The notes under the pieces are model-generated. The model was not told the origin of the DNA, searched no databases, and saw only the letters and a program-made list of their open reading frames with translations. From assembly GCA_964348825.1 (NCBI GenBank), contig CAYGDX010000002.1:80609-144608 (forward strand): DNA of 64,000 nt, given 5' to 3'. Origin of the DNA: an uncultured Gammaproteobacteria bacterium. Its GTDB lineage: Bacteria; Patescibacteriota; Patescibacteriia; Veblenbacterales; UBA10138. A program made the translations under genes and the position numbers. Below, piece after piece: positions 7,994 through 57,727 of the stretch (the first letter of the stretch is position 1; each line of letters opens with the position of its first letter).

Positions 7994-8081
7994 TTACATT
8001 AGAACATTAAATCACCAGAACATAAAAACAAAAAAAATTTTAATTAATGCTCTAATGTTTAAGTGTTCTAATGTTTTAATG
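7994..8081. repeat. palindromic intergenic repeat, ctagaacac/gttctag family, copy R2
   Basis: acattagaacattaaatcaccagaacat...gctctaatgtttaagtgttctaatg is an imperfect inverted repeat shared with 7 other loci. Confidence 0.6.
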
Positions 8082-8145
8082 AATAAAATTTAGGATTTTT
8101 GAGAGATTGCCGCGTCGCTCGCCTTACTCGCTTCTCGCAATGACA

Positions 8146-8907
8146 TTATTGTGTTAACACTTCACATCCGTCATCCGTCACCGCCACCGTGTGCTCAAAA
8201 TGAGCTGACAAACTGCCATCCATTGTCGCTACTGTCCAATTATCATCCAATACTTTTACTTGCCAATCTCCAATATTAACCATTGGCTCAATCGCAATCA
8301 CCATACCAGATTTAAGTTTCATTCCTGCGCCTGCCTTACCAAAATTAGGTACAGCTGGTTCTTCGTGTACTGCATAACCTACGCCGTGACCCACTAAATC
8401 ACGTACAACAGAGAAGCCATTTTTCTCAATATAGCTTTGTATGGTAAAACCAATATCGCCCAAAGTCGCACCAGCCTTTACCCGCTTAATTGCCTCTACT
8501 AAAGAATCTCGGGCCACTTGAATTAATTTCACAGCAGGATCATCAATTTTACCAACTGGCACAGTAATCGCACTGTCAGTAAATAATCCTTGATAACAAC
8601 AGCCCAAATCCAAACCAATAATTTGTCCTGTTTTTAAAATAACAGAGGATTTGGGAATGCCGTGTACCACTTCTGAATCAACTGATGTACAAAGCGTAGC
8701 GGGGTATGGCGAGCTACCGTGCGTACTATAATTTAAAAATGACGGCTCAGCACCGGCTTCCCTTAATAATTTTTCAGCTAGCGCATTAAGCTCCAGAGTA
8801 GTTACACCTGGTTTTACCGCCGCCGCTACTTGTTTTAAAGTCGCGGCTAAAATACGCCCGCCAGCGTGCAATATTTTTATTTCTTCCGGAGTTTTGATTA
8901 AGTTCAT
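8146..8907 (-). CDS. map: type I methionine aminopeptidase
   Basis: 253 aa with the conserved pita-bread fold metal ligands (D, D, H, E, E) in MAP-I context. Confidence 0.9.
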   Translation of the reverse strand: MNLIKTPEEIKILHAGGRILAATLKQVAAAVKPGVTTLELNALAEKLLREAGAEPSFLNYSTHGSSPYPATLCTSVDSEVVHGIPKSSVILKTGQIIGLDLGCCYQGLFTDSAITVPVGKIDDPAVKLIQVARDSLVEAIKRVKAGATLGDIGFTIQSYIEKNGFSVVRDLVGHGVGYAVHEEPAVPNFGKAGAGMKLKSGMVIAIEPMVNIGDWQVKVLDDNWTVATMDGSLSAHFEHTVAVTDDGCEVLTQ

Positions 8908-8941
8908 TTTTTAGAAATTAGAAGTCATAATTTATTTATTT

Positions 8942-9110
8942 GTTACTTCTTTAGTAGAAGTAACCAAGAATCGCAGGCCACAGTCTTCGGGTTTGAACAG
9001 TGCTCGTCGGACTCACTGGCTCGGGCTATGCACAGCGACCACAGCACGCCCGAGCCGTACGCTCGTCCGACTTCCGCTCTGTACAAACCCTACGACGAGG
9101 CCGCACGACG
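8942..9110. repeat. GC-rich ~170-bp element with imperfect terminal inverted repeats (MITE-like), copy A, reverse orientation
   Basis: Shares terminal sequences cgggtttgaacagtgctcgtc / cgctctgtacaaaccctacgacgagg and an internal ggctcgggc...gcccgagcc stem with copies at 39120-39395 and 56888-57056. Inserted between adk and map. Confidence 0.55.
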
Positions 9111-9178
9111 TTTTGGGAATTGGGATTTGGAATTTATTTAGGATTTAGATATTAGTGATTAGTAATTAATGATTTTTA

Positions 9179-9826
9179 TTACAACCCCAAGGCCATCACA
9201 ATACTATACGTCACCTCACTAATCCCCGGCTGCCCATCTATCGAAAGCAACGCGCCTTTACCACGATAAAATTCAAGTAAGGGTTCAGTTAGTTTGTGAT
9301 AATCATTTAAACGGGCACGAATCGCTTCAGGTGTATCATCTTTTCTAACTTCTAAACTACCACCGCAAGCACACAAACCGTTAGTGGGTGGTGGATTAAA
9401 CTGTTGATGATAAACTGTTCCACATTTTACACAAGTAAGCCGTCCGCCAATTCGCTTAATAGCTACTTCGTCAGATAATTGTAAATATATAATTTTTGTA
9501 TCAGGATAAAACTTAAATAAAAATTCCGCCTGTGATAAATTACGCGGGAAGCCATCGAGCACAAAACCATTGTCAGCGTCATTTTGTTTTAAACGTTCGG
9601 ACACCACCTGATTAGTTATTTCATCTGGCACTAAAATACCATTATCTATCAGAGATTTAACTTTACTACCAAGCTCTGTGCCGCTAGCTACAGCGGCCCT
9701 AAATATACTACCTGTGGCAATATGTGGCACACCAGTCGCCTGTGCCAATACTTTAGCCTGTGTGCCCTTGCCACTGCCTTGCGGCCCTAATAATACGTAT
9801 TGTTTAGTGTTTAACATAACAAGCAT
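9179..9826 (-). CDS. adk: adenylate kinase (zinc-lid type)
   Basis: P-loop GPQGSGKGTQ, LDGFPR, and Cys4 lid (CVKCG...CACGG). Canonical position after secY. Confidence 0.9.
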   Translation of the reverse strand: MLVMLNTKQYVLLGPQGSGKGTQAKVLAQATGVPHIATGSIFRAAVASGTELGSKVKSLIDNGILVPDEITNQVVSERLKQNDADNGFVLDGFPRNLSQAEFLFKFYPDTKIIYLQLSDEVAIKRIGGRLTCVKCGTVYHQQFNPPPTNGLCACGGSLEVRKDDTPEAIRARLNDYHKLTEPLLEFYRGKGALLSIDGQPGISEVTYSIVMALGL

Positions 9827-9871
9827 ATCTTACCTAAAATCAATAAAAAAATCTAGCCCTTGTCTTATACT

Positions 9872-9944
9872 CACTAAAACCCTAGAACACTTAAACACTA
9901 GAACACATTTTGTTTTAATGATCTAGGGTTCTAGTGTTCTAATG
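9872..9944. repeat. palindromic intergenic repeat, ctagaacac family, copy R3
   Basis: ccctagaacacttaaacactagaacac...gatctagggttctagtgttctaatg. Confidence 0.6.
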
Positions 9945-10060
9945 AAAACTATTTTAACACTATTACCTTACTTTTACTTAACACATCTATATATTCCCCC
10001 AAAAAACAAACAGTGCTATAATAAAGTTGCTCTTAAACCTAACCATTAATTTTATAGTTT

Positions 10061-11143
10061 ATGAAGCATTTTAAAATCACACTCGGCCTAGTGTTTTTAA
10101 TGGCCGCGGCTCTCTGGCTAACTGTACCAAAAATCACTTTGGCGGCCAGCGCTGATATTACTCTAAAAGGAGTAACTTTAGTCGCTCCTCCAGTTACTAA
10201 CCCTCTAACCCCAGTAGTGAACGAAGACAATAATAGTTTTGTTGTAAAAGCGGCTGATGCTACTAATATTTTAGTAAACTACACTGATCAAAATCTCACA
10301 ATTACACCACCAGTGCTAGGCACAAAAATCACCGGCACGCCTAAATCATTGGTTAAATTAACTGATTGGCTAGCTGGCGAAACCTTAAATATTAAAGGCA
10401 CTGTTACGTCCTATAGCGCCGGTCAATTAGTAATCAAGGCCTCAGAAATTGAATATAAATCAGCCGGTGTATCCACCAAAACCTTAAAAGGTACGGTAGA
10501 AAGAAAAGATGGAAATACTTTATATGTAGCAGTTAAGGATGGAAAATCATATGAGGTAGTACAAATTGACAATGTTGGTGTTGCGGGCAGTGGAACAACT
10601 ATAACTCCCGTTTCTTTAGCTGATACCGTGCCTGGCCGAAGTGTTCAAGTTACTCAATTATGGCGCGTGGTGCCACCAGCTACCCAATTTACCTATATCA
10701 AAACCTCTACAGTTAAAGTTTTACCAGTAGCAAGTGCCTCTAGTGTAAATCGTTTGGTAAAAATAGTTTACTCTGCTTCTGCAACACCACCATACTCCAA
10801 TGCGGTTACATATTCTAATACTACTGTTCCTAATACCACTGAATTAGGATTATATCCTAAAAACAAATTATCAATTTATAATAGCACTGATAATAATTTG
10901 TATTTAATAACGAAGGCTGGCGACCCATTGGCAGTGGATGATGGTAAAAAATTAAAACCAAATCTTAAACCGAATAGTTATACCTTGATCCCAGCTAAAG
11001 GCACTAAAACATTCCAAGTGCCAGATAGTATATTCGCAACCGGTAGCACTGCTGGCACAACTGTGGATTTTACTCTGTCCTTAAATTCTAGCGGTTCAGG
11101 TCCAGAAGTTCTACCAGTTTCAGTACGTGTAACCAAACCTTAA
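10061..11143 (+). CDS. secreted Thr/Ser/Val-rich hypothetical protein (signal peptide, likely cell-surface)
   Basis: N-terminal signal peptide (MKHFKITLGLVFLMAAALWLTVPKITLAASA), then a low-complexity beta-rich sequence. Opposite strand to the ribosomal operon it interrupts. Confidence 0.5.
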   Translation: MKHFKITLGLVFLMAAALWLTVPKITLAASADITLKGVTLVAPPVTNPLTPVVNEDNNSFVVKAADATNILVNYTDQNLTITPPVLGTKITGTPKSLVKLTDWLAGETLNIKGTVTSYSAGQLVIKASEIEYKSAGVSTKTLKGTVERKDGNTLYVAVKDGKSYEVVQIDNVGVAGSGTTITPVSLADTVPGRSVQVTQLWRVVPPATQFTYIKTSTVKVLPVASASSVNRLVKIVYSASATPPYSNAVTYSNTTVPNTTELGLYPKNKLSIYNSTDNNLYLITKAGDPLAVDDGKKLKPNLKPNSYTLIPAKGTKTFQVPDSIFATGSTAGTTVDFTLSLNSSGSGPEVLPVSVRVTKP

Positions 11144-11164
11144 GTAAATCTAAGGTAAGCTAAA

Positions 11165-11200
11165 AACAACCCTAAGCTACGTCGAGGGGTTGTTTTTTAT
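11165..11200 (+). terminator. rho-independent terminator of the 10061-11143 gene
   Basis: aacaaccc-N14-gggttgtt stem followed by a T-run. Confidence 0.5.
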
Positions 11201-11261
11201 TAAAAATAAAAAGGTCGTCTCAAATTTTAAAAACGACCTCCAGACACTGAATGTATTTTAC

Positions 11262-12011
11262 TTACTTAAACACAACAATCTCATTATATTTTGTTGCCGG
11301 TTCAAGCAAAGTAATAATTTTTTTAATTATTTCTTCTGGTTCTAAAAAATGACCAAACCTCATTATAAATGCTCGTTTCATTATTTCTACACTTACACCT
11401 CTTACTTTTGCTCGTTCTGAGATCTGCTTTTCGATTCTTTCACCCTTTATTGGACCAGGGCATAGAGCATATGCGCGCACGTCAATATTTCTATTTTTAT
11501 TAACACTGCCATACTCTTTTATCTCTGCATTAATAGTTTTAGATAGCCCGTTTACACCATGTTTAGTTATAGAATATCCCACCCTTTCAGCATATCCATT
11601 CAAACCAGCATTTGAGCTAATGTCTATAATTCGACCAAACCCAAATTTAAGCATATTTGGTAAGGCATACTTAGCTAGGAGTGTTGGCGCCAAAACATTA
11701 GTGTAAAACATTTGTAAAATTTCATCTGAATATATTTCACCGATTGATTTTGTTGGACCAAAATCAGCTGCAGCATTAATAAGTATCGAAGCGCTACTGG
11801 CATATTTGACAGCAAAAGACTCAACAGCTACACAATTAGACAAATCTAAACTAACCGCGGTTACTGAACATTTTTTAGAGAGCTCCTTTTGTACTAAACT
11901 TAATCTTTGAACATCGCGACCGGTAATCACCAAATTATTTTCCGCGGCCACTAAATTTTTAGCCACCATTTTTCCGATACCAGAAGAAGCACCTGTAATA
12001 ACTACATTCAT
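11262..12011 (-). CDS. SDR family oxidoreductase
   Basis: TGASSGIGK glycine motif and a YxxxK-type active-site region. Inserted between secY and adk. Confidence 0.7.
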   Translation of the reverse strand: MNVVITGASSGIGKMVAKNLVAAENNLVITGRDVQRLSLVQKELSKKCSVTAVSLDLSNCVAVESFAVKYASSASILINAAADFGPTKSIGEIYSDEILQMFYTNVLAPTLLAKYALPNMLKFGFGRIIDISSNAGLNGYAERVGYSITKHGVNGLSKTINAEIKEYGSVNKNRNIDVRAYALCPGPIKGERIEKQISERAKVRGVSVEIMKRAFIMRFGHFLEPEEIIKKIITLLEPATKYNEIVVFK

Positions 12012-12182
12012 ATTGTTAATCTCCGATTTTTGTTTAATTTACGAATTTCACTTTATCTTATCATAAAAACACATTTTGTCAATAGTATAAATTTGACTAA
12101 AATTAGCACAAAAAAGCCAGATATAATCTGGCCTTAAAAAACTAATAACTATTGGCTAGTGGCTAGTGGCTAGGAACTACAA

Positions 12183-13466
12183 TTACAATTCATCATAATC
12201 TCTCATCACTAGTTGGGCGTTGATTTGACGAATAGTTTCAATTACCACCGACACTACGATAAGCACTGAAGTACCACCAATCACGAGCAACTGCGAACCA
12301 GTGGCGTTTTGAAGTAACATTGGCATTACCGCAATCAGCGATAAAAATACCGCGCCAGGAAGTACCACCCGATTCATAGTTTGACTTAAAAATTCTACGG
12401 TCGTGCGCCCAGGCCGAATGCCTGGAATAAAACCACCTTGCTTTTGTAAATTCTCGGCAATTTGTTCGGGCTTGAAAACCACGGCGGTATAAAAATAGGT
12501 AAAACCAAATACCAATATAAAATATAAAATAGAGTAAAGTGGATGAGTTGGTTGAAAAACATTAATCACCCATTGACCAACACTTTGTAGCCAAACGGCA
12601 CCCGACTTAACTAGAAATTGAGCAATGAGTGGTGGAAAGAAAATCACGGAAATAGCAAAGATAATTGGAATCACACCGGCTTGCAACAACCTAAGTGGCA
12701 AATGAGTAGAAGCGCCACCAGAAGTGCGTGGTCCGTGAATCATTCGGGCATATTGCACTGGAATATTGCGCTGGGCCTCATTCACCACCACCACACTAAC
12801 AACTGTAATCAAAACCACCGCTACAAATAAAATTATATTAAAAATTTGTGAAGCATCTGTAGTAGTTACCGCAATTTGTTGAATTTGTTGGGGTAACCCA
12901 GCAATGATACCAGCAAAAATAAGAAGCGAAATGCCATTACCAATCTTCCGCTCCGAAATAATTTCCCCGAGCCACATTAAAAATACTGTACCAGCCGTAA
13001 TAGTAAGCAAGCTCAAAACCAAATCAAAACCACCCAAGGCCCCCACAATTTTGCCACTCCCAGCATTACGTAAAATAGCAATAAAACTATAGGCCTGCAG
13101 AACCGCGAGTGGTACAGTTAAAATACGAGTGTATTGATTTATTTTATGTTGGCCAGCTTCACCTTCTTTAGAAATTTCTTCTAAACGCGGCACAATCATC
13201 GTTAAAAGTTGAACAATGATTGAAGCGGTGATATATGGACCAACGCCAAGCATTACAATAGAAAAATTTTCAAGTCCGCCACCAGAAAGTAAATTTAAAA
13301 AACCTAAAAATTGATTCGATGAAAAAAAGTTACGTAAAGCCAAAGCGTCCACTCCTGGAATTGGAATATGGGCCGCTAAACGAAAAATACCGAGCATTAA
13401 AACCACAAAAAGCAAGCTCTTGCGTAAGTCGGGTGTTTGCCAAATTTCTCGAAGTTTATCAAACAT
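12183..13466 (-). CDS. secY: preprotein translocase subunit SecY
   Basis: 427 aa, 10-TM SecY signature. Follows rplO. Confidence 0.9.
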   Translation of the reverse strand: MFDKLREIWQTPDLRKSLLFVVLMLGIFRLAAHIPIPGVDALALRNFFSSNQFLGFLNLLSGGGLENFSIVMLGVGPYITASIIVQLLTMIVPRLEEISKEGEAGQHKINQYTRILTVPLAVLQAYSFIAILRNAGSGKIVGALGGFDLVLSLLTITAGTVFLMWLGEIISERKIGNGISLLIFAGIIAGLPQQIQQIAVTTTDASQIFNIILFVAVVLITVVSVVVVNEAQRNIPVQYARMIHGPRTSGGASTHLPLRLLQAGVIPIIFAISVIFFPPLIAQFLVKSGAVWLQSVGQWVINVFQPTHPLYSILYFILVFGFTYFYTAVVFKPEQIAENLQKQGGFIPGIRPGRTTVEFLSQTMNRVVLPGAVFLSLIAVMPMLLQNATGSQLLVIGGTSVLIVVSVVIETIRQINAQLVMRDYDEL

Positions 13467-13536
13467 AAAATTTTAAATCCGAAATCCGAAGCACTAAATC
13501 CGAAATTTTCGTATTTCGAATTTCGATATTCGAATT

Positions 13537-13983
13537 TTAACTAACTAATTCCACCTTTCCACCTGCGCTCTCAACTGCTTTAACCGCACCCTTGCTTGCC
13601 GCTTGCACCATTACGGTTAAATTAGCTGGCGCCTTACCCTGCCCAATCAATTTGACTGCTAAGTTGGCTTTATCAATTAAATCGTGCTTTTTTAATAACT
13701 TAGCATTAACTTTTACTCCAGCTGAAAACACTGCGAGATCGGCTACATACACTATTTGCATTTTATCATACTCACTCTTAAACCCGCGAACTTTTGGCAA
13801 ACGAGTAACAAAATGCTTAACTCCAAATTGAACCAAACCCTTACGCCCACCTTGACGCGCGCGCTGACCTTTAATACCACGAGTTGAATAAGCGCCATGA
13901 CCAGAACCAAGCCCTCTACCCAAACGCTTACGACGATGATGAGAACCTTTATTTGGTTTAATTGTATGGAGAGAAAGTGTCAT
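13537..13983 (-). CDS. rplO: 50S ribosomal protein L15
   Basis: Gly/Arg-rich N-terminus typical of L15. Position between rpsE and secY with no L30 gene. Confidence 0.9.
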   Translation of the reverse strand: MTLSLHTIKPNKGSHHRRKRLGRGLGSGHGAYSTRGIKGQRARQGGRKGLVQFGVKHFVTRLPKVRGFKSEYDKMQIVYVADLAVFSAGVKVNAKLLKKHDLIDKANLAVKLIGQGKAPANLTVMVQAASKGAVKAVESAGGKVELVS

Positions 13984-14114
13984 AAAAGTTTAAATCCTAA
14001 ATTCTAATTTCTAAATCCTAAATAAATTTTGAAAATTTTAAAATTGAAAATTTATTGAAAATTGTAAATTGATAATTGAAAATTTTAATTAATTTTTACT
14101 CTAAACTCTTACTC

Positions 14115-14660
14115 TTACTTAACTAACTTGAAACTAGCGAAGGCCTTAAGTACGGCGCGCACATTATTTACTTTATTGTTACTACCTAAAATTTTACTTA
14201 CCACATTTGGTACACCAGCGGCCTCCAGTACTACTCGCACCGGACCGCCCGCAATAATACCAGTACCAACTGGAGCTGGCTTAAGCATTACTTCAGCACT
14301 TTTATATTTTACTGTAATTTGATGAGGAATTGTAGCCCCGCGTAGTGGCGCAATTATCAAACTTTTGCGAGCACGAGCGGCAGCTTTATCAACTGCTAAA
14401 CTCACATCGGCACCCTTGGCAAGCCCCATACCAACCTTACCTTTATGATTACCCACAATCACAAGGGCACGAAAACGCATACGCTTACCACCCGCCATCA
14501 CGCGAGTAACTCGGGCGAGTTCCAAAACTTTTTGATCAAATTCGTCGTCAACTCGCGCACGATTGCCACCACGCCCGCCACCCCGTGAACCACCACGCCC
14601 GCCCGTACCAAAACGAGTTTGTGTCTGTGATTGTGATTTTGTACTTGCTTCCATATTCAT
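14115..14660 (-). CDS. rpsE: 30S ribosomal protein S5 (with RGG-rich N-terminal extension)
   Basis: S5 dsRBD and C-domain motifs, plus a GRGGSRGGGRGG N-terminal extension. Confidence 0.9.
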   Translation of the reverse strand: MNMEASTKSQSQTQTRFGTGGRGGSRGGGRGGNRARVDDEFDQKVLELARVTRVMAGGKRMRFRALVIVGNHKGKVGMGLAKGADVSLAVDKAAARARKSLIIAPLRGATIPHQITVKYKSAEVMLKPAPVGTGIIAGGPVRVVLEAAGVPNVVSKILGSNNKVNNVRAVLKAFASFKLVK

Positions 14661-14682
14661 AGTTTTAGTTATTAGTTCAAAG

Positions 14683-14763
14683 TTTCATTAGAACACTAGA
14701 GCATTAGAACACTTTATCAATTTTTTGTTTTTATGTTCTAGTGATTTAATGTTCTAATGAAAT
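14683..14763. repeat. palindromic intergenic repeat, ctagaacac family, copy R4 (between rpsE and rplR)
   Basis: Nearly identical to copy R6 at 19682-19760. Confidence 0.6.
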
Positions 14764-14767
14764 TAAC

Positions 14768-15127
14768 TTAAAATATTAAACCTGCTTCGCGAGCCGACTC
14801 AGCCAAAGCTTTCACCCGACCGTGATAAGCTACTCCACCACGATCAAATACTACTTCTTTAACTCCCTTACTTTGTGCTTTATCACCAATTAACTTACCA
14901 ACCTTACTTGCTATTTCTACTGGAGTTTTACCTTTTTTATCACCCGCAACTAATTCTTTATCGCAAGCTCCCACCAGTGTTTTACCAATTTCATCATTAA
15001 TCACTTGGGCGGTAATGTGTTTTAAACTACGAAAAACCACCAAACGCGGACGTAAAGTTGTACCAGTCAAACGAGACCGAATTCGGCCTTTTCTTTTTTC
15101 TCTTGAACTGCGAATATCTTTTGACAT
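14768..15127 (-). CDS. rplR: 50S ribosomal protein L18
   Basis: Homology pattern and operon position. Confidence 0.9.
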
Positions 15128-15154
15128 ATAATTAAAATCCTAAATCCTAAAAAA

Positions 15155-15712
15155 TTATTTAGCGCCGGCTGATTTTACAACCTTACCAGCTTTACGACGA
15201 ATAATTTCATCGGCATATTTAATACCCTTACCTTTGTATGGCTCTGGTTCTTTAAGTAGTCTAATTTCAGCCGCCACCTGACCAACTTGTTCTTTGGAAG
15301 CGCCAGAAATTGCGATAAACATATTTTTTTCAACCACCGCCTTAACTCCAACTGGTAAATTATAACGAACAGGATGAGAAAATCCTAAATTAAGCACCAA
15401 AGTATTACCTTCTAACGCAACCTTAAAGCCAATACCAGATAATTCTAATTTTTTAGTAAACCCCTCACTTACACCTTTAATGGCGTTGGCTACCAATTGA
15501 CGAGCCAACCCCCAAGCCGCCCGTGCCTTACTACTATCCAACTCACTAATAGTTATTTTAATTACAGAATCAGCCTGCTCAACTTTAACAAATTTTGGTA
15601 AAGTCACTCGCACTTTACCTTGTGGACCTTGCGCCAAAAAAACACGAGCTGCTTCTTCAGCTAAAGATGTACCGGTTGGAATATTAATTGGTAGTTTACC
15701 TAAACGAGACAT
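15155..15712 (-). CDS. rplF: 50S ribosomal protein L6
   Basis: Homology pattern and operon position. Confidence 0.9.
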   Translation of the reverse strand: MSRLGKLPINIPTGTSLAEEAARVFLAQGPQGKVRVTLPKFVKVEQADSVIKITISELDSSKARAAWGLARQLVANAIKGVSEGFTKKLELSGIGFKVALEGNTLVLNLGFSHPVRYNLPVGVKAVVEKNMFIAISGASKEQVGQVAAEIRLLKEPEPYKGKGIKYADEIIRRKAGKVVKSAGAK

Positions 15713-15753
15713 AATATTTAAAATCTTAATATCTAAATCCGAAATCCTAAAAA

Positions 15754-16140
15754 TTAAAAAATTTCACAAAGCACTTCACCACCTAAAGATTTTTTCTTAG
15801 CTTCTTTGTTAGTCATTAACCCTTGTGAAGTAGAAACCACTGCTATTCCCAAACCTGACAAAACATTAGGCAGTTCCGCCGCCTTAACATAAAGTCTGCG
15901 CCCTGGCTTACTAATTCTTTTGATTCCCTTAATCTTTGATTGACCATTTTGATATGACAATTCCAAAACTAAATTACGATATGGATCAGCGGCTTCTGAC
16001 ACTTTGGCTACATAACCTTCGCGCGCCAAAACATCAGCTAATTTAGCCTTAAGGGTAGAGTATGGTACTGAAACTTGCACTTTGCGAGCTAAAGCACCAT
16101 TTCTGATACGTGTAAGCATGTCACTAATTGGATCGGTCAT
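15754..16140 (-). CDS. rpsH: 30S ribosomal protein S8
   Basis: Homology pattern and operon position. Confidence 0.9.
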   Translation of the reverse strand: MTDPISDMLTRIRNGALARKVQVSVPYSTLKAKLADVLAREGYVAKVSEAADPYRNLVLELSYQNGQSKIKGIKRISKPGRRLYVKAAELPNVLSGLGIAVVSTSQGLMTNKEAKKKSLGGEVLCEIF

Positions 16141-16243
16141 AATATAAATTTATAACTATTAGTTCTTAGTTCCTAGCCACTAGTTCCTAATCATCAGTTC
16201 TACTCAACTCAAGAACTAGGAACTATTGGCTAGTGGCTTAATA

Positions 16244-16438
16244 TTACCAACTGGCCTTTCTAATACCAGGAATTTCTCCATTGTTAGCCAGTTCCCTAAA
16301 GCAAATACGACACATATTAAAATCTCTCATATAACCATGTTTGCGACCACAACGCCAACAACGTCTAACTATCCGTGTTGAATACTTGGCATTAGTAAGT
16401 GAGTTAAAACTTTTTATTTCTTGAACTTTGGTAGACAT
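16244..16438 (-). CDS. rpsZ: 30S ribosomal protein S14 type Z (zinc-binding)
   Basis: 64 aa with CWRCGRK...CRIC zinc motif. Located between rplE and rpsH. Confidence 0.9.
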
Positions 16439-16485
16439 AAGTATTTAAATTCTAAATCCGAAATCCTAAAAAAATAATTTAAAAA

Positions 16486-17037
16486 TTAATTAGCAAAAGG
16501 AAAACCTAATAATTCAAACAAACGACGACCTAATTTCTGTGAACGAGCATTGGTGGTAATAACCACCTCCAAACCATGTAAACTTTCAATTTCATCTGAT
16601 TTAATTTCTGGAAAAACTGTATGCTCACGAAAACCAAGTGATAAATTACCTTGTTTATCAACTGACTTAATTGATAACCCACGAAAATCACGCACTCGCG
16701 GGAAAGTAACACGTAGTAATTTAGTTAGGAATTCGTTCATCCGTGCGCCGCGCATTGTTACTACCACACCAACTGCCATACCTTCACGAATTTTAAAATT
16801 CGAAATTGATTTACGAGCCAATGCGAGTACTGGTTTTTGACCAGTAATACGTTCTAAAGTTTTTACCACTACTTCTTGTGCTTTGGTATCTTTTTTAGAA
16901 GCATTGAGGCCAACATTTATTACTACTTTCATTAAGCGAGGCACGGCTAAACTATTAGTTAAACCAAACTCTGACTTAAGGCTCGGTACTACCACCTGCT
17001 TATAAACTTCCATTAAATTTTTAGATGTTTGATTCAT
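16486..17037 (-). CDS. rplE: 50S ribosomal protein L5
   Basis: Homology pattern and operon position. Confidence 0.9.
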   Translation of the reverse strand: MNQTSKNLMEVYKQVVVPSLKSEFGLTNSLAVPRLMKVVINVGLNASKKDTKAQEVVVKTLERITGQKPVLALARKSISNFKIREGMAVGVVVTMRGARMNEFLTKLLRVTFPRVRDFRGLSIKSVDKQGNLSLGFREHTVFPEIKSDEIESLHGLEVVITTNARSQKLGRRLFELLGFPFAN

Positions 17038-17093
17038 AAATAGTTATTAGTTTGAAATTTTCGAATTTCGATATTAGAATTTCGAATTTTTAA

Positions 17094-17408
17094 TTATAAT
17101 ACCCCGCCACACTTATGACAAGTACGAGATTTAATTCCTTCGCTATTAATTTTAAAACGTGGACGACAATTTTTTCCGCATTGTGGACAAACAATCGCTA
17201 ACTTACTAAGTTTAAGTGGCGCTGCAAATTGCACACGATTACCAGTACGACCCGCCTGCCCAGTACGCAAATGTTTGAAACGTAAATTAATACCTTCCAC
17301 TACTGCGAGATCAAGGGCAGGAAAAACTTGTGTCACTTTCCCCTGCTTACCCAAATCACGGCCAGCCAACACTTTTACCAAATCATTTTTTTTAATTTTA
17401 AGTGCCAT
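17094..17408 (-). CDS. rplX: 50S ribosomal protein L24 with C-terminal Cys4 zinc-ribbon-like tail
   Basis: KOW motif N-terminus. The C-terminus carries CPQCGKNC...CHKCGG. Confidence 0.85.
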   Translation of the reverse strand: MALKIKKNDLVKVLAGRDLGKQGKVTQVFPALDLAVVEGINLRFKHLRTGQAGRTGNRVQFAAPLKLSKLAIVCPQCGKNCRPRFKINSEGIKSRTCHKCGGVL

Positions 17409-17444
17409 ATAATATAAAATTCGAAATCAGAAATCCTAAAAAAA

Positions 17445-17816
17445 TTATAAAACCTCAGGAGCTAAAGAAATAATCTTTTGAAAACCACCAGCCCGTAGTT
17501 CACGAGCCACTGGTCCAAATACACGAGTACCTTTTGGTTCTTTGGTTTTTTTATCAATCAACACTACCGCATTATCATCAAATCTGATATAAGAGCCGTC
17601 AACTCTGCGAGTTTCTTTATGAGTTCGTACGAGCACCGCATGCAGAACTTCACTTTTTTTAACCATACCATGTGGCTCAGCCTCTTTCACTACTACAGTA
17701 ATAATATCACCTAAGTAGCCATAACGTTTTTGATAACCACCTAAAACTCTAATACACTGCACCTTTTTGGCACCGGTATTATCAGCTACTTTTAACATTG
17801 ATCTAAGTTGAACCAT
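17445..17816 (-). CDS. rplN: 50S ribosomal protein L14
   Basis: Homology pattern. First gene of the spc unit. Confidence 0.9.
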
Positions 17817-17857
17817 AAAATCTTCAGATTTTACCCCGAGCCAAGTCGAGGGGTGAT
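17817..17857 (-). promoter_or_regulatory. conserved structured 5' leader motif immediately upstream of rplN
   Basis: On the mRNA strand: ACCCCUCGACUUGGCUCGGGGUAAAAUCUGAAGAUUUUAUG. A near-identical motif lies upstream of rpsC (19587-19630). Confidence 0.45.
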
Positions 17858-17867
17858 TAAAAAACTG

Positions 17868-18125
17868 TTAAACCTTATTTAAAATACGAAAACGCTTAGT
17901 ACGTGAACGCGGAGCGCAAGCTTCAATTTCAACTTTATCACCTAATTTAGAAATATTTTTTGCATCATCGACTGCAAAACGCTTGGAAACTACAAAACGC
18001 TTTTTGTATTTAGGATGAACTTTCACAATTTCAACCCGAACCACGCGGGTTTGTGGCATTTTATCTGACACTACCACACCGGTTAAGCGTCTATATTGTG
18101 GCTCAGTTTTAACAGGTTGAATCAT
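17868..18125 (-). CDS. rpsQ: 30S ribosomal protein S17
   Basis: Homology pattern and position. Confidence 0.9.
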   Translation of the reverse strand: MIQPVKTEPQYRRLTGVVVSDKMPQTRVVRVEIVKVHPKYKKRFVVSKRFAVDDAKNISKLGDKVEIEACAPRSRTKRFRILNKV

Positions 18126-18149
18126 AAAAATTAATTCTAAATTCTAAAA

Positions 18150-18344
18150 TTATTTATTTTTGGAAATTAAAGTCAAAAGTTGCGCGACTTGTTGTCTAAC
18201 TTTTCGTATTGCCCTAACATCTTTTAAATCTTGTCGTGCGATTCTTGATTTAAGTGTAGCTAATTCTTGTCGCGCTTCACTTAATTTATTAGTCAATTCT
18301 GTTTTATTTAAATTTAGTAAATCTTTAAACTTTGGAGTTGGCAT
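18150..18344 (-). CDS. rpmC: 50S ribosomal protein L29
   Basis: Homology pattern and position. Confidence 0.85.
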   Translation of the reverse strand: MPTPKFKDLLNLNKTELTNKLSEARQELATLKSRIARQDLKDVRAIRKVRQQVAQLLTLISKNK

Positions 18345-18360
18345 AAATTTGATTATTAGA

Positions 18361-18450
18361 TTACATTAGAACATTAGATCACTAGAACATAAAAGCAAAA
18401 TTTTATAAGTTGTTTCAATGTTCTAGTGTTCTAGTGTTTAAATGTTCTTA
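18361..18450. repeat. palindromic intergenic repeat, ctagaacac family, copy R5 (between rpmC and rplP)
   Basis: ttacattagaacattagatcactagaacat...caatgttctagtgttctagtg. Confidence 0.6.
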
Positions 18451-18459
18451 CTGAATAAT

Positions 18460-18870
18460 TTACTGTTTAGTTATAAAAATAGTAGCGACTGGTAATTTAT
18501 GTTTGGCAAGCCTAAGGGCTGAAGCAGCTAACGCTTGTGGTACACCATCTATTTCAAATAAAATCGTACCTGGTTTAACTGGAGCAACATAATGATCCAC
18601 AGCACCCTTACCACCACCCATACGAATTTCATTACCTTTTACCGATACTGATTTATCAGGGAATACTCGAATCCAAACTTTACCCCTGCGTTGTAAATGA
18701 CCGGTAATAGCCCGACGTGAAGCTTCTAACTGACGTGATGTTAGCCAACCAGCCTCAGTCGCTTTTAATCCAAAACCACCAAAATTAAGTTCGGTTTTAC
18801 GAGTCGCCCGACCCTTAATTTGGTCACCGCGTTGCTGTTTTCGATATTTTACTTTTTTAGGTAACAACAT
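18460..18870 (-). CDS. rplP: 50S ribosomal protein L16
   Basis: Homology pattern and position. Confidence 0.9.
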   Translation of the reverse strand: MLLPKKVKYRKQQRGDQIKGRATRKTELNFGGFGLKATEAGWLTSRQLEASRRAITGHLQRRGKVWIRVFPDKSVSVKGNEIRMGGGKGAVDHYVAPVKPGTILFEIDGVPQALAASALRLAKHKLPVATIFITKQ

Positions 18871-18905
18871 AAAGTTTAAAATCCTAAATCTTACAAAACA
18901 ATGAA

Positions 18906-19586
18906 TTAATTCTTACCCGAATTACTTGATTGGCTAGCGGTATCATGCGGTGAACCAAAGAATTCTCCTTTATTAATCCAAACTTTTATTCCTAAACCAC
19001 CATAGGTCATTTGCGCTTTTGTTCTAGCATAATCTACCTCAGCTCTAATAGTATGAAGTGGCACTGTGCCAACCGTTAATTTTTCACTCCGCGCAATTTC
19101 TGAGCCATTCAAACGACCACCAATCATTACTTTTACTCCGAGTGCTCCCGCCTTCATTACTTGATCAATCGCTTGTTTCATCACCCTACGGAAAGGCAAT
19201 CTTTTTTCAAGTTCCAGCGCCATTGCCTCTGCTACTACTTCAGCTGATAACATTGGGTTAGCTATTTCTTGAATGTTAAGTTTGACATTTTTCTCGCCAG
19301 TTGAAAAATCAGCTTTAATTTTCTTTTTTAATTCTTCAGCCTGAGCACCACTGCGACCAATCACGAGCCCTGGCTTAGCAGTAAAAATTGTTACTGTTAA
19401 ACTAGAAGCGCCACGCTCTACTTCAATTCGTGATACGGAAGCACCGCGTAATTGTTTTTTTAAAAAACGACGTAATTTTACATCTTGCTCAAGTAATTTA
19501 GCGTATGATTTACGCGCAAACCATTTGGAGCGCCAGCTGTAAACTGTGCCGAGGCGAAAACTTGTTGGATGAACTTTCTGTCCCAT
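18906..19586 (-). CDS. rpsC: 30S ribosomal protein S3
   Basis: KH domain plus S3 C-domain. Confidence 0.9.
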   Translation of the reverse strand: MGQKVHPTSFRLGTVYSWRSKWFARKSYAKLLEQDVKLRRFLKKQLRGASVSRIEVERGASSLTVTIFTAKPGLVIGRSGAQAEELKKKIKADFSTGEKNVKLNIQEIANPMLSAEVVAEAMALELEKRLPFRRVMKQAIDQVMKAGALGVKVMIGGRLNGSEIARSEKLTVGTVPLHTIRAEVDYARTKAQMTYGGLGIKVWINKGEFFGSPHDTASQSSNSGKN

Positions 19587-19630
19587 AAAATCTTTAGATT
19601 TTACCCCGAGCTAAAGTCGAGGGGTTACTT
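19587..19630 (-). promoter_or_regulatory. conserved structured 5' leader motif immediately upstream of rpsC (second copy)
   Basis: mRNA strand: ACCCCUCGACUUUAGCUCGGGGUAAAAUCUAAAGAUUUUAUG. Same motif as upstream of rplN. Confidence 0.45.
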
Positions 19631-19681
19631 GTAAAATTTAACTTGAAACTCTAAATTTAATTGTTAGTTCTTAGTTCTATG

Positions 19682-19760
19682 TTTCACTAGAACACTAGAG
19701 CATTAGAACACTTTATCAATTTTTTGTTTTTATGTTCTAGTGATTTAATGTTCTAGTGAA
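19682..19760. repeat. palindromic intergenic repeat, ctagaacac family, copy R6 (between rpsC and rplV)
   Basis: Nearly identical to R4. Confidence 0.6.
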
Positions 19761-19761
19761 C

Positions 19762-20118
19762 TTAATTTTTAGGCGTTTTTTTAGGAGCTTCATTGCTTAA
19801 AACCACATTAATATGGCAAGTTGGTTTACGTATTGGTGTCGCTCGTCCTTGCGCTCGTGGTGTAAATCTTTTAAGCACTGGGCCTTGTCCAACTGTAATA
19901 GTTTTTATCCACCACTCACCTTCTTTGCTTTGACTTTTAACCTCAGCATTGGCTTGAGCTGATTTAATTAATTTAAAAACTGCTCGAGCCGAAGTTTTTG
20001 GTAAATAACTAAGCTTAAGTAAGGCGGTAGACACTTTATGTCCGCGCACAGTATCAATCACCAACTTAACTTTATTGGGTGATTGCCGTAAGTAACTTAA
20101 TTTGGCTGTACTTTCCAT
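19762..20118 (-). CDS. rplV: 50S ribosomal protein L22
   Basis: Homology pattern and position. Confidence 0.9.
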   Translation of the reverse strand: MESTAKLSYLRQSPNKVKLVIDTVRGHKVSTALLKLSYLPKTSARAVFKLIKSAQANAEVKSQSKEGEWWIKTITVGQGPVLKRFTPRAQGRATPIRKPTCHINVVLSNEAPKKTPKN

Positions 20119-20126
20119 AAAATAAA

Positions 20127-20474
20127 TTATTTAGCTTTAGGTTTTTCAGGTGCGGCTTGAGTAGCTTTAGCTTTATCAGCTTCAGCACTAGCCGCAGCCG
20201 CAGCTTGTTCACGCGCCATTTTGCCGCCATGACCAGTAAATTTACGAGTTGGTGAAAATTCTCCAAGTTTGTGCCCAACCATATTTTCTACCACTATAAC
20301 AGGTAAATGATTTTTACCATTATGCACACCAAATGTAAATCCAATCATTTCAGGTGTAATAGTTGAATCACGCGACCAAGTTTTAATTGGTGTTTTGTCA
20401 CCAACTTTAACTTTACTCATTTTTTTGAGTAACGATGGGTCAACAAATGGTCCTTTTTTCAAACTACGTGACAT
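20127..20474 (-). CDS. rpsS: 30S ribosomal protein S19 (Ala/Lys-rich C-terminal extension)
   Basis: S19 core plus a ~25-aa AK-rich tail. Confidence 0.9.
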
Positions 20475-20528
20475 AAAATTTTAAATCCTAAATTCTAAAT
20501 TCGAAATCCTAAATAATTAAAAATAAAC

Positions 20529-21365
20529 TTAAACTCGTTTCGGACGACGGGAAACTATAAATTTGTTCGAAGATTTATTAACAGAACGTGTTGGCACACC
20601 TAAAGCTGGTTTACCCCACGGTGTTTTTGGATGTTTCATACCAATTGGATTGTGACCTTCACCGCCACCATGTGGGTGATCAACCGGATTCATTGCTTTA
20701 CCGCGAACACTGGGGCGAAAGCCTTGGTGACGTCTCCGACCGGCTGTACCTAAACGTACATTTAAATGGTCTATATTACAAACTTGACCAATGGTAGCCG
20801 AACAATTATCTGACACTAATCTAATTTCACCTGAAGGCATTTTAAGACGAGCAAAACCTGCTTCGACTGACATCACTAAAATTTGACTACCCGCTGATTT
20901 GGCGATCATTCCGCCATCACCCGGTGTAAGTTCTACATCATGTACTGCAAGTCCAGCTGGCACGTGTTTCAATAATAAACGATTACCACAAGTTGCCGTA
21001 ATTACTTCACGACTTGATAAAACTTCCATACCCACCTTTAACCCTTCGGGTGCAATAATATAGGTTTTAACACCATCTCTATACTGAAGTAAGGCTAAAT
21101 TAGCTGTACGTTGTGGATCATAACTTATGGCAATAACCGAAGCCTTCATATCATACTTATTACGCTTTGAATCCACAATACGCAATAACCGTTTAGCCCC
21201 ACCACCACGATGTCGCACTGTAATTTTACCTTGATTGTTGCGTCCGGCTGATTTACTTTGGCCTTTTACCAAACTTTTAACCACAGCATTCTTTGAAATA
21301 CCGCGCACCAAAACACTGGCGTGACGCCGTCCGGGAGTTGTAGGTTGGTATAATTTAATCGCCAT
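20529..21365 (-). CDS. rplB: 50S ribosomal protein L2
   Basis: Homology pattern and position. Confidence 0.95.
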
Positions 21366-23064: not shown

Positions 23065-23317
23065 ATAATCTTAAATCCTAAATCCGAATATCTAAATCCT
23101 AAAAATTAAAATGAAACAAAAAACCGCTTTACCAAACCCTAAACTACAATACAACTAAGGTAAAACGGTTTCATAATAATGTTAGTATAGTTTAGAAATA
23201 GTGAAATAAATATCCTTAAAACAATTTAACCGGTTTTATTGGTCTAGCTCTAAAGCTACCGACATAAGCCCAAATTAAGTTGTTTTTATAGGCGTTTTTA
23301 AGCGCTTGTATACCTTA

Positions 23318-33725: not shown

Positions 33726-33761
33726 ACTTTAAATAATACATAGTTAATTATATTATTATCA

Positions 33762-39091: not shown

Positions 39092-39119
39092 AATGTTTAA
39101 ATCCCAATTTTAGACGTTG

Positions 39120-39395: not shown

Positions 39396-39448
39396 ATCTT
39401 AATTTACTAGATTCCCGCCTCCGCGGGAATGACAACCTATTATGACTC

Positions 39449-48969: not shown

Positions 48970-49052
48970 TCACTAGAACATTAGATCACTAGATCATAAG
49001 AACAAAAAGTTTTTTATTAATAATGTTCTAATGTTTAAATGTTTTAGTGTTC
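48970..49052. repeat. palindromic intergenic repeat, ctagaacac family, copy R7
   Basis: Near-exact reverse complement of copy R8 (57640-57727). Confidence 0.6.
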
Positions 49053-55517: not shown

Positions 55518-55593
55518 AATTCTAAATAGACCTAAATGTTCACAAAGTCGCGCACCAATCAATTCGGACGCGACTTTTTTATTTTCTTAAAAT

Positions 55594-56787
55594 TTACCGA
55601 CGACCACGAAAGGGGCGTCTTGGCGCACTGCCACGTGGGACATCTCTTTCCACATAAGCACTAGCTCGCGCGGGTGGCAAAACTGGCAATTTAGAAAGTG
55701 GTAAAGCCAAACGAATTAACCTTTCAATGCCTTGCACATCACTTTTTTGGTCAGGCGTGGCAAAAGAAATCGCATGACCAATTTGCCCAGCCCGGCCAGT
55801 ACGACCAATGCGGTGGACATAATCTTCTGGACTCTCTGGTAGATCATAATTCAAAACTAGTTCAATACCTTTGACATCTATCCCCCGCGCCGCAATATCA
55901 GTGGCTACCAAAATTCTATATTTACCATTACGAAAACCATTCATCGCTTCTATTCTTTGACCAAGTGAACGATTAGAATGTATTTCTACTGCACTGTGCC
56001 CGAGCGCGCGTATAATTACAGCAATTTTTTTAGCGCCAAATTTAGTACGCGAGAAAATTAAAATTGAACCACGATATTCATTTAATATTTTCTCAAGTAA
56101 TCGCGGCTTATCATTTTTCTGCACACAATAAAGCTCTTGCGTAACCTTATCAATAGTGGTGCCGGGCGGAGCAATTTCCACCCGCAGTGGTAATTTCATA
56201 TGTGATTGTGCCAGTGCTACAATATCGCGCGGCATAGTAGCAGAAAAAAGCAGTGTTTGCCTGTCTTTGGGCACGGCTTGAACTATTTTTTTAAGTTGCG
56301 GTGCAAACCCCATATCAAGCATTCGATCAGCTTCATCGAGCACCAATATTCCCACACTACTAAGTGAAATAGATTTTTGTTCTAAATGATCAATAATTCG
56401 CCCCGGTGTACCAATAATAATATAAGGATTTTTTTGCAAAGCGTAAATTTGACGATTGATTGATTCGCCACCAATTATTACTTCGGCCCGAATTTTAAGT
56501 GGCCAACCAATTTTTTGCAGTGTTTCGTGCACTTGAAAAGCCAATTCACGAGTAGGCAAAACTACCAAGCCGTATTTACCATTTAAAGCCGCTTGGATTA
56601 AAGGGATGCCAAAAGCTAAGGTTTTTCCGGTACCAGTTTGAGCAATACCAATAAGATCCTTACCATCTAAGGCTGGTGGAATAGATTTTTCCTGAATTGG
56701 AGTCGGAACTGTGAAATTAAGCTTATCAAGTATGGCCAAAATGTTTGGCGCGATTCCAAGATTATAAAAACCAGATGTTGTATTCAT
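55594..56787 (-). CDS. DEAD-box ATP-dependent RNA helicase (RG-rich C-tail)
   Basis: Q-motif, AQTGTGKT, PTRELA, DEAD, SAT, and HRIGRTGRAG. Confidence 0.9.
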   Translation of the reverse strand: MNTTSGFYNLGIAPNILAILDKLNFTVPTPIQEKSIPPALDGKDLIGIAQTGTGKTLAFGIPLIQAALNGKYGLVVLPTRELAFQVHETLQKIGWPLKIRAEVIIGGESINRQIYALQKNPYIIIGTPGRIIDHLEQKSISLSSVGILVLDEADRMLDMGFAPQLKKIVQAVPKDRQTLLFSATMPRDIVALAQSHMKLPLRVEIAPPGTTIDKVTQELYCVQKNDKPRLLEKILNEYRGSILIFSRTKFGAKKIAVIIRALGHSAVEIHSNRSLGQRIEAMNGFRNGKYRILVATDIAARGIDVKGIELVLNYDLPESPEDYVHRIGRTGRAGQIGHAISFATPDQKSDVQGIERLIRLALPLSKLPVLPPARASAYVERDVPRGSAPRRPFRGRR

Positions 56788-56887
56788 GCCGCCACTATAA
56801 CACAGTTAGTGAAAATAAGATAGTGACGTTTAAATCCGAAATACGAATATCGAAATCCGAAATAAATCCCAATGACAAAAATCCAAA

Positions 56888-57056
56888 AGTTGTGCGGCCT
56901 CGTCGTAGGGTTTGTACAGAGCGGAAGTTCCGCGAATGTCCGGCTCGGGCGTGTTTGTGGTCGCTTGGCATAGCTTGAGCCAGATCGTTTGACGAGCACT
57001 GTTCAAACCCGGAGACCGAGGCGGCGATTTTGTGTTACTTTATAAAAAGTAACAAA
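56888..57056. repeat. GC-rich TIR element (MITE-like), copy C
   Basis: cctcgtcgtagggtttgtacagagcgg...gacgagcactgttcaaacccggagaccgaggcggcgattttgtgttactttataaaaagtaac. Confidence 0.55.
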
Positions 57057-57080
57057 GAAAAAAATGGAGGGTAATAAATT

Positions 57081-57527
57081 TTAATTTCCAAAAATATTCT
57101 TCACCCAATCTTGCCAACCACCACCTTGTTCAGCCTCCCACCATTGCCAAAAAACTACCGGCTTAATTACCTTCACACCGTCCCATTCCCCCACTTCTAA
57201 TAAATGCCTGTCTTCCGTAATTAAAAATTGCGCTCTACCCCCGACCGCCGCGTCTAATAATTTGTGATCTTCGGGATCTTCGAGCATCGCCGGCACCAGC
57301 TCGGGCTCTACCTTCTCCGCTGAATTTAAAAATGCTAAAATTTCTTGCTTAAAAATTTGATCTTTAACTAAACGCTTTACTATTAATTCATTTTCCCGTC
57401 GCACTTGATGAGAAATCAGGGCTTTAATTTTTCCGAGTTTTACCAAATCTAAAATCCGCTGGGGGTAACTGCCTGCACCCTTTTGCGCATTTATTAAAAC
57501 ATTGGTATCTAAAACTACTCGAAGCAT
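57081..57527 (-). CDS. PIN-domain protein (VapC-like nuclease fold) with Trp-rich C-terminal extension
   Basis: VVLDTNVLI start. Acidic catalytic residues (D, E, D) appear in PIN spacing. No adjacent antitoxin ORF. Confidence 0.6.
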   Translation of the reverse strand: MLRVVLDTNVLINAQKGAGSYPQRILDLVKLGKIKALISHQVRRENELIVKRLVKDQIFKQEILAFLNSAEKVEPELVPAMLEDPEDHKLLDAAVGGRAQFLITEDRHLLEVGEWDGVKVIKPVVFWQWWEAEQGGGWQDWVKNIFGN

Positions 57528-57639
57528 ATAAAAAGTATAGTAAATTTCTACTATTTGCGAAAGTCCTAAAATAAGCTAAAGTAAAGGCGGGATGGTGGTT
57601 AAATCCGAAGCCCTAAATCCGAAATCCTAAAAAACTGAC

Positions 57640-57727
57640 ATTAAAACACTAGAACATTTAAACATTAGAACATTATTAATAAAAAACTTTTTGTTCTTAT
57701 GATCTAGTGATTTAATGTTCTAGTGAA
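57640..57727. repeat. palindromic intergenic repeat, ctagaacac family, copy R8
   Basis: Reverse complement of R7. Confidence 0.6.

Follow-up and report, generated by a model that had tools for sequence, protein, structure and literature searches.

Palindromic octamer arrays in the operons of a Patescibacteria genome resemble gene-less copies of an intervening-sequence-type cassette

The subject of this analysis is a family of palindromic repeats in a 64,000-nt stretch of metagenomic DNA (contig CAYGDX010000002.1; hereafter the window), which corresponds, in reverse complement, to a part of a metagenome contig of 195,841 bp. Contig L001 is 100% identical to the window, and the genes next to the repeats were named from Pfam matches on this contig. 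The sister metagenome-assembled genome (MAG) and the other related genomes that were found are labelled Patescibacteria, or candidate phyla radiation (CPR). The window contains the S10/spc ribosomal-protein operon, in which Pfam calls no L30 gene between S5 and L15. Seven palindromic elements and one half copy are present, the palindromes being approximately 80 bp long and filling gene-to-gene gaps. Three elements lie inside the S10/spc operon, whereas the others adjoin genes with housekeeping roles, namely dnaB, ruvX, map, adk, one clpB/C-like and one comF-like gene, a PIN-domain gene, and ychF. Neither the window nor 19 loci of the sister MAG yielded any rRNA, and all element copies are located between protein-coding genes. 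The eight copies listed in the original prediction were all recovered, at essentially the same coordinates, using an octamer-array scan. Their density is about one per 8.5 kb, and the remark that this is unexpected in a streamlined genome has to be seen against an intergenic DNA that is rich in several families of 7-8-nt word arrays and in small GC hairpins.

The elements had been described as imperfect inverted repeats, which is correct for the inversion but incomplete, since each arm is built from three to five tandem octamers, with CAYTAGAA on the 5' side and the inverted array TTCTARTG on the 3' side. Degenerate octamers of the form CAYTWAAW, for example CATTAAAT and CACTTAAA, occur among these units, the arms are separated by an AT-rich loop of about 10-30 nt, and arm-to-arm complementarity is just 76-86%. 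The excess over chance is large: CTAGAACA is found 15 times in the window versus 1.26 expected from shuffles, and the two-octamer pattern CAYTAGAWCAYTAGAWCA, allowing up to three mismatches, is found 45 times versus 0.61 expected, with 44 of the 45 matches inside the eight copies. The octamer-array scan returned 15 arms, comprising seven inverted pairs and one solo arm, compared to 0-1 in 20 shuffles. Tandem Repeats Finder independently reported period-8 arrays at the copies, and a period of 16 at 14728-14759 and 19727-19758; it gave no row for the arm at 7997-8020. Every window element folds as a long imperfect hairpin (-20.5 to -29.4 kcal/mol, z -3.5 to -7.8). Rfam, at the gathering score, returned tRNAs only, and in a relaxed Rfam scan of 14600-19850 the three elements gave sub-threshold chance matches to microRNA-precursor hairpins.

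The half copy is a solo 5'-type arm on the plus strand at 2198-2229, consisting of the octamers CACTAGAA CACTTAAA CATTAAAA CACTATAA; it begins 9 nt past the dnaB stop codon, as called by Pfam, and runs in phase into the ATG of an open reading frame (ORF) at 2231-2599. The element at 7997-8081 lies between the stop of map (M24 peptidase) and the start of ruvX, and folds with -29.4 kcal/mol (z -7.6). The one at 9872-9944, a variant with CCCTAGAA units, lies between adk and a 360-aa ORF, two genes that point away from each other. Within the ribosomal operon, an element assigned to sub-family B (14686-14759) fills the gap between rplR (L18) and rpsE (S5) and has a conserved 3' tail, GAAACTTTGAACTAATAACTAAAACT, that reaches up to the ATG; a sub-family C element (18364-18444) fills the gap between rplP (L16) and rpmC (L29), and a second sub-family B element (19685-19758) starts 3 nt past the stop of rplV (L22), upstream of rpsC (S3). 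The separation of these ribosomal genes, which the original prediction had pointed out, is confirmed by the Pfam calls. Finally, two sub-family A elements are located at 48971-49049, 11 nt past the stop of the clpB/C-like gene and upstream of the comF-like gene, and, in reverse orientation, at 57639-57725, in the divergent gap between the PIN-domain gene and ychF. The close pairs that had been noticed by eye were borne out: the copies at 14686 and 19685 are 94% identical over 102 nt, and those at 48971 and 57639 are near-exact reverse complements (97.6% over 83 nt).

The repeats are not confined to the window, which was the reservation attached to the original prediction. At least 24 further copies were found in the fetched pieces of the sister MAG, Patescibacteria MAG H52-bin160_1 (H52), which together with the seven window copies gives 31 full copies, and related copies are also present in another contig from samples holding the window's sequence. 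A three-octamer pattern scan of species-representative genomes recovered these palindromes together with their loops on many H52 contigs, and other Patescibacteria MAGs contained related octamer palindromes built from other words, such as CATGGGAG. Most matches in unrelated phyla (Bacteroidota, Gammaproteobacteria, and others) were simple microsatellites of the type (CATTAGAA)n or (CACTAGAA)n; four of the matches adjoin genes of the protein family PF05635 discussed below. In viral contigs only five stretches matched, three of them in giant-virus MAG contigs and all by pattern match alone. Non-orthologous copies group into sub-families that share their loops and are 94-99% identical over approximately 100 nt, loop included; therefore, the ORF-less unit multiplies as such, and the repeats form a true dispersed palindromic family, as was claimed, with sub-families. 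Both flanking genes could be called for 29 of the 31 copies, and were co-directional in 25 cases, divergent in 4, and convergent in none. Copies usually start a few to some tens of nucleotides past the upstream stop codon and end some tens of nucleotides before the next start codon, so that an element often fills most of the intergenic region. They occur in both orientations relative to transcription. A general orientation rule was considered and abandoned: the six sub-family B copies in ribosomal operons are all sense, but three other sub-family B copies are antisense and sub-family A is mixed.

H52 is a sister species of the window organism, and eleven flanking genes of the two are 88.9% identical overall and 77.7% identical at third codon positions. 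Five copies are shared, namely those at map/ruvX (97.6% identical to the H52 orthologue), adk/360-aa ORF (100%), L18/S5 (100%), L16/L29 (98.8%), and PIN/ychF (98.9%). In the S10/spc operon, the copy between L22 and S3 is found only in the window, the H52 site being empty, whereas copies at L4/L23, L2/S19, and L6/L18 are found only in H52, and the window has short spacers there. Thus, the elements turn over between sister genomes and are mobile now or were so recently, as the original prediction had proposed. No target-site duplication was visible at four filled/empty comparisons, in which the sites were too diverged across the whole stop-to-start spacer. Filled sites lack the TTTAGGATTTAAAnnTTT-ATG start module that is usual in this genome. 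Taken together, the five shared copies are identical at 396 of 400 positions (99%), a value well above that of the third codon positions of the flanking genes and higher, too, than that of second codon positions in most of the genes compared, ribosomal-protein genes included, while most other intergenic DNA cannot be aligned between the window and H52. This comparison supports the view that the elements are under constraint, which had likewise been suggested. Conversion among copies cannot explain the conservation of the element at 9872-9944, since this copy has no close paralogue and is nevertheless 100% conserved. Loops and mismatched positions are conserved alike in the shared copies.

Two observations on the ribosomal operons of related genomes may be added. 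In locus L090 (1260-1400, compared to window positions 18330-18940), the H52 rpsC stop runs directly into an octamer element followed by rpmC, and rplP (L16) is absent; either the gene has really been relocated or deleted, or the assembly is at fault. In the more distant Patescibacteria MAG JAHISB01, the ribosomal operon carries other word arrays at other junctions than in the window, with TATTAGA words and GTGTATC heptamers (L018, 547-700, 1880-1951, and 2342-2464; L064, 2247-2381) and an octamer palindrome of CATGGGAG/TTCTAATG between L3 and L4. Conservation of element positions in JAHISB01 was therefore rejected, as the arrays use different words and different junctions.

When ORFs near arrays were clustered in several MAGs, one small recurring array-side protein was picked out. 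It belongs to PF05635 (23S rRNA intervening-sequence protein), with a weak bAvd match, and to TIGR02436 (four helix bundle protein), and matches the pentameric XCC0516 structure (PDB 2GSC). Such genes adjoin word arrays in loci L035, L015, L020, L011, L017, L077, L026, and L033. In the H52 locus L035, the PF05635 gene (complete cassette at 7329-7688, with the ORF inside the stem-loop) lies between inverted CAYTAGAA arrays, the 5' array running in phase into the ATG. A database search returned protein P0002, the product of a 119-aa gene, which is 88% identical to the H52 protein; its contigs come from samples ERR3094292 and ERZ27247817, both of which also hold sequence identical to the window. 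The P0002 gene is located between pilB and pilT in locus L174, where the cassette spans 3896-4255. Its left flank reads CATAATAA CATTAGAT CACTAGAA CATTAGAA C-ATG and its right flank TAG TTAATG TTTAAGTG TTCTAATG TTTTAATG. Both sub-family A elements of the window align to the two ends of this cassette: the left end, up to the ATG, matches at 30 of 35 positions for the element at 48971 and at 29 of 35 for that at 57639, and the right end, composed of the last 8 nt of the ORF and the right arm, at 39 of 48 and 41 of 49, respectively. Sub-family A therefore looks like the cassette minus its ORF, deleted between two ACA triplets. We consider it highly probable that the octamer elements originate from a PF05635 cassette. 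As a side observation, this PF05635 sub-family recurs inside CPR type IV pilus/pseudopilin operons (L174, L101, L107, L116, L118, L124, and the P0077 context), where its genes were seen in the pilB-pilT interval, after pilC, or amid genes that look pilin-like (L101-L124 judged by eye). This position seems conserved rather than random.

The association between gene and array recurs in other loci. We examined 80 metagenome loci for whose selection only protein similarity counted (51-62% identity). As the query for the locus search, an alignment of six protein sequences was tried and discarded for being too diverse. In nearly all of the 40 loci with printed flanks, a CA-type array runs up to the ATG and a complementary TG-type array starts from the stop. 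The array words vary by locus (CATTTTAA, CAAGAAAT, CGTGAAG, CACGAGA, and others), and cassettes with unrelated words keep the same period. In the 69 loci with 120-nt flanks, the best period was 8 in 45 and 7 in 20, both arms had one and the same period in 61, and the median arm contained approximately 4.3 units, with a modal arm of 4-5 units. An inverted upstream/downstream score of at least 16 was reached in 50 of 73 loci versus none of 75 control pairs. Arm complementarity is locus-specific (own median 18 versus cross-locus median 8, p = 3e-19), and extra arrays of the same word were present near the cassettes in 7 of 74 loci, compared to 3 of 222 cross-controls. PF05635 genes adjoin arrays also in Chryseobacterium, Dokdonia, a Victivallales MAG, and a gammaproteobacterial MAG. 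In the literature, we found no paper on these words or on word arrays around PF05635 genes in operons.

Among the closest known systems are the intervening sequences (IVS) of 23S rRNA. In Coxiella, the gene within the IVS is a member of the S23p family, which includes the PF05635 proteins; tandem heptamers precede its ATG, the terminal stem measures 28 bp, and RNase III excises the IVS. Such rRNA IVS are regarded as selfish, their means of spread being unknown (PMC4990558). CPR rRNA genes contain 23S_rRNA_IVP ORFs, IVP standing for intervening-sequence protein, and many short ORF-less insertions (PMC11270868), and a position of IVP genes in the midst of cas genes has been reported (PMC3936711). 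The cassettes described here share with the IVS of Coxiella burnetii and Leptospira a PF05635-family ORF in the loop of a long inverted-repeat stem, tandem 7-nt repeats that run up to the ATG of the ORF, with a poor or absent Shine-Dalgarno sequence, and the existence of short ORF-less versions. The terminal inverted repeats of our elements can also form a long stem, as is characteristic of rRNA-type IVS. Differently from the IVS, the elements lie between protein-coding genes, in ribosomal-protein, pilus, and housekeeping operons, instead of in rRNA helices, their arms are regular arrays of 4-5 octamers, and the ORF-less copies are numerous and near-invariant between sister species.

We propose that the repeats are 'mini' versions, devoid of the ORF, of a small hairpin cassette carrying the lineage word CAYTAGAA, and that they may behave like 23S rRNA IVS, but inside mRNA operons. 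Upon transcription of the operon, the arms would pair as an imperfect stem of 25-30 bp that RNase III-type processing could cut, and neighbouring cistrons would thereby be separated or insulated from each other while transcription goes on. RNase III cutting is known for Coxiella, whereas here it is drawn from the analogy with IVS, by which RNase III processing of the operon transcripts would be the most economical mechanism. The original prediction had named intra-operon RNA processing and protein binding as possible roles, and the elements, which form strong hairpins, could act in either way. We judge the full explanation, RNase III-type processing included, to be somewhat more probable than its negation.

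A number of observations speak against this explanation. The window itself has no PF05635 gene, and the assignment of L174 to the same organism is based on the shared samples and the 88% protein identity. No rnc gene is present in the window, and no transposase was seen that could account for the spread of the copies. Filled and empty sites differ over the whole spacer, so that clean insertion boundaries cannot be defined. In two further genomes with a PF05635 cassette, L178 among them, no ORF-less arrays of the same word were found within 20 kb. The mismatches between the arms of 60 cassettes show no strand bias, with 111 G.U versus 110 A.C pairs on the sense strand, and because of these equal counts the idea of RNA-level selection on the arms was dropped. 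Since the window arms, moreover, are just 76-86% complementary, pairing alone does not look like the selected property. The joint conservation of loops and mismatches points to sequence-specific recognition rather than to a generic hairpin.

The last points lead to the strongest alternative, in which the arrays are binding sites, in DNA or RNA, for the cassette's own four-helix-bundle protein and the ORF-less palindromes form a regulon or scaffold. A pentameric ring as in PDB 2GSC would then contact one 7-8-nt word per subunit, matching the 4-5 words per arm. This alternative shares its evolutionary origin with the IVS-like explanation and differs from it only in the mode of action. It would account for the strict periodicity of the words and their conserved frame, the modal arm length of 4-5 units, the existence of solo arms (2198-2229), the lack of a G.U over A.C bias, the extra same-word arrays near cassettes, and the 99% conservation of shared copies, loops and mismatches included, even at 9872-9944. 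Different PF05635 paralogues, in addition, go with words of their own, which the window also contains in ORF-less form: P0002 with CAYTAGAA, the second gene of L174 with AAATCCT, that of L077 with CTAGCCA/CTAGTTC, and that of L026 with GTAAGAG. However, the word pattern itself was used to fetch loci L035 and L015, which in part builds in their match, some arrays reach 10-15 units, and the PF05635 family is not known to bind nucleic acids with specificity. The function of S23p has been called unknown (PMC4990558). Overall, binding of the cassette's own protein is a possibility that we rate clearly below an even chance. A wider version is more tentative still: PF05635 proteins would read short tandem words in a sequence-specific manner, a 7-8-nt word being particular to each paralogue and one word being taken up per ring subunit, and the dispersed ORF-less arrays would be genome-wide sites. 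The same pairing of proteins and words is expected from plain co-inheritance of the cassette, and the word-reader idea therefore stays conjectural.

The original prediction had described the repeats as REP/MITE-like, i.e., akin to repetitive extragenic palindromic (REP) sequences or to MITEs (miniature transposable elements with inverted repeats). They are dispersed and palindromic, as this implies, but the defining features of REP elements with their REP-associated tyrosine transposases (RAYTs) and of classical MITEs were not seen. We regard it as improbable that they are a family of REPs or REP doublets forming hairpins (REPINs) moved by a RAYT (Y1 HUH) transposase, or MITEs moved in trans by a DDE transposase. 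REPIN/REP elements and their RAYTs were reportedly described by Bertels and Rainey in 2011, and the resemblance is considerable: inverted doublets with decayed singlets or solo arms, intergenic sites, high copy number, sub-families, presence/absence polymorphism, one repeat-flanked partner gene, and no visible target-site duplication, which suits the IS200/IS605-RAYT type, although the four filled/empty comparisons were too diverged for a clean test. The arms, however, are tandem direct octamers and not self-complementary REP hairpins. Among the approximately 60 annotated ORFs of the window, several of which have no match at all, there were no Pfam matches to transposase, integrase, RAYT, or RNase III families. 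The sole longer element with the same two ends codes for a four-helix-bundle protein, in which no catalytic motifs are known, instead of a Y1 transposase, and a genuine MITE of the same lineage, with terminal inverted repeats (TIRs) and a 3-bp duplication, looks quite unlike the octamer elements.

Two other repeat families are comparable in part. The Correia elements of Neisseria are approximately 100-bp palindromes inside operons, whose transcribed hairpins are processed by RNase III and alter the expression of neighbouring genes. They resemble our elements in size, intra-operon location, and hairpin formation, but have 26-bp TIRs and a TA duplication, and show neither the word periodicity nor the ORF-bearing form found here. 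The short tandemly repeated repetitive (STRR) heptamer arrays of cyanobacteria, reportedly described by Mazel et al. in 1990, are likewise intergenic arrays of 7-nt words with several families per genome, but they belong to another phylum, whereas the period here is mostly 8, and we know of no description of STRR arrays as inverted pairs around a PF05635 gene.

It is very unlikely that the arrays are tandem operators at promoters for a DNA-binding regulator with an 8-bp register. The boxes bound by the Trp repressor and MetJ recur at 8-bp intervals, the CTAG repeats have this spacing, none of the 29 copies lies between convergent genes, and the window encodes a TrpR-family protein (PF01371, E 9e-20; 33405-33725, minus strand), upstream of a gene for a pyridoxal phosphate (PLP)-dependent enzyme. 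Against this, about half of the units lack CTAG (CATTAGAA, CATTAAAT), copies lie inside the ribosomal-protein operon, in both orientations and directly past stop codons, a promoter scan of 7000-21000 showed no site within the five copies covered, one weak site overlapping the edge of 18364-18444, and cassettes elsewhere use unrelated words with the same period. The TrpR-family gene, furthermore, has in its promoter region a perfect 16-bp palindrome, ACTGTACTAGTACAGT (33761-33776), which is probably its own operator.

Least likely of all are intrinsic terminators or attenuators, or neutral low-complexity DNA born from slippage: strong hairpins right past stop codons and AT-rich, slippage-prone tandem words would suit these, but the hairpins have AT-rich stems with no U-tract behind them, three copies lie inside an essential co-transcribed operon and none of 29 at convergent gene ends, and neutrality is excluded because the shared copies are 99% identical compared to 78% at third codon positions. 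Promoter and terminator scans of 7000-21000, which covers five of the eight copies, showed nothing within the elements above background. Two candidate motifs seen by eye were also set aside. Extended -10-like TGnTCTAAT motifs in the TG arms had an unconvincing -35 spacing and an inconsistent orientation relative to the genes, and an IHF-like site, TATCAAttttTTG, present only in the loop of sub-family B, was judged to be due to chance.

Several other word arrays occur in the window. AAATCCK heptamer arrays (reverse complement AGGATTT) make up 18 tandem sites, some of them palindromic and many directly upstream of start codons as TTTAGGATTTAAAnnTTT-ATG; examples are located at 13475-13530, 13991-14023, 15135-15151, 20476-20514, 23067-23103, 29075-29106, 57600-57631, and 58822-58925. 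The same AAATCCT heptamers, inverted, flank the second PF05635 gene of L174 (6878-7246; region 6800-7284). CTAGCCA/CTAGTTC heptamer arrays are found at 12149-12173, 16141-16243, and 29145-29177 and include a palindrome between S8 and S14, and in the H52 locus L077 (7050-7560) a PF05635 paralogue that is 33% identical to the octamer-associated protein lies between inverted arrays of these words. Two further word-array palindromes, at 29965-30052 and 37455-37558, contain GAATCTA/AATTCTA heptamers and ACTAATTTCTAA-type words opposite TTTGGGGATT, and both adjoin small GC hairpins.

Small GC-rich hairpins of the window form three families, GAGAGATTGC...GCAATGAC(A), ATTCCC-N8-GGGAAT, and CCTGCCTGCCGGYAGGCAGG, and their positions fall into three groups (7540-7579, 8101-8144, 25600-25653, and 42064-42108; 28517-28536, 29940-29968, 37602-37621, 39411-39430, and 60690-60709; 25558-25577 and 27899-27918). 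The pattern ATTCCC-N8-GGGAAT is also that of the Neisseria dRS3 element. A GC-rich repeat of approximately 190 nt is present in long intergenic gaps in at least three copies that are 77-80% identical (8958-9150; 56849-57040, minus strand; 39099-39369), with a similar-looking stretch, by look, in the sister MAG (L009, 1000-1150). Rfam matched nothing in it at the gathering score; a structured RNA and a further mobile element are both conceivable. The classical-looking MITE mentioned above is approximately 140 bp long with TIRs of about 23 nt and lies at 40552-40692 in the window, with other occurrences in L022 (6127-6252), L035 (3555-3698), L038, L067, L090, and L006. At the site matching window position 9815, the sister MAG has an extra insertion of approximately 126 bp with similar terminal repeats and a duplicated ATA. 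With its terminal inverted repeats and site duplication, this MITE contrasts with the octamer elements.

The origin and purpose of rRNA IVS and their S23p/IVP ORF have been a question since the early 1990s. A cassette of the same kind, in which inverted tandem-word arrays enclose an ORF, is found in ordinary operons of CPR bacteria and some further phyla, and it appears to shed its ORF to become a multiplying hairpin repeat. IVS-like hairpin cassettes in mRNA operons, whose ORF-less copies turn over and yet are near-invariant, are a more interesting finding than a generic REP/MITE family. For annotators, they are a warning that much of the 'intergenic filler' of reduced genomes may be structured and selected. 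A protein family of unknown function is hereby linked to a dispersed and unusually conserved repeat, and the problem has become testable, with one small protein, one 8-nt word, and one operon for RNA-end mapping. If PF05635 proteins do read such words, the protein-word pairs CAYTAGAA, AAATCCT, CTAGCCA, and GTAAGAG would jointly organise operon expression or processing in these CPR genomes, and the IVS/S23p/Avd-like family would have a function.

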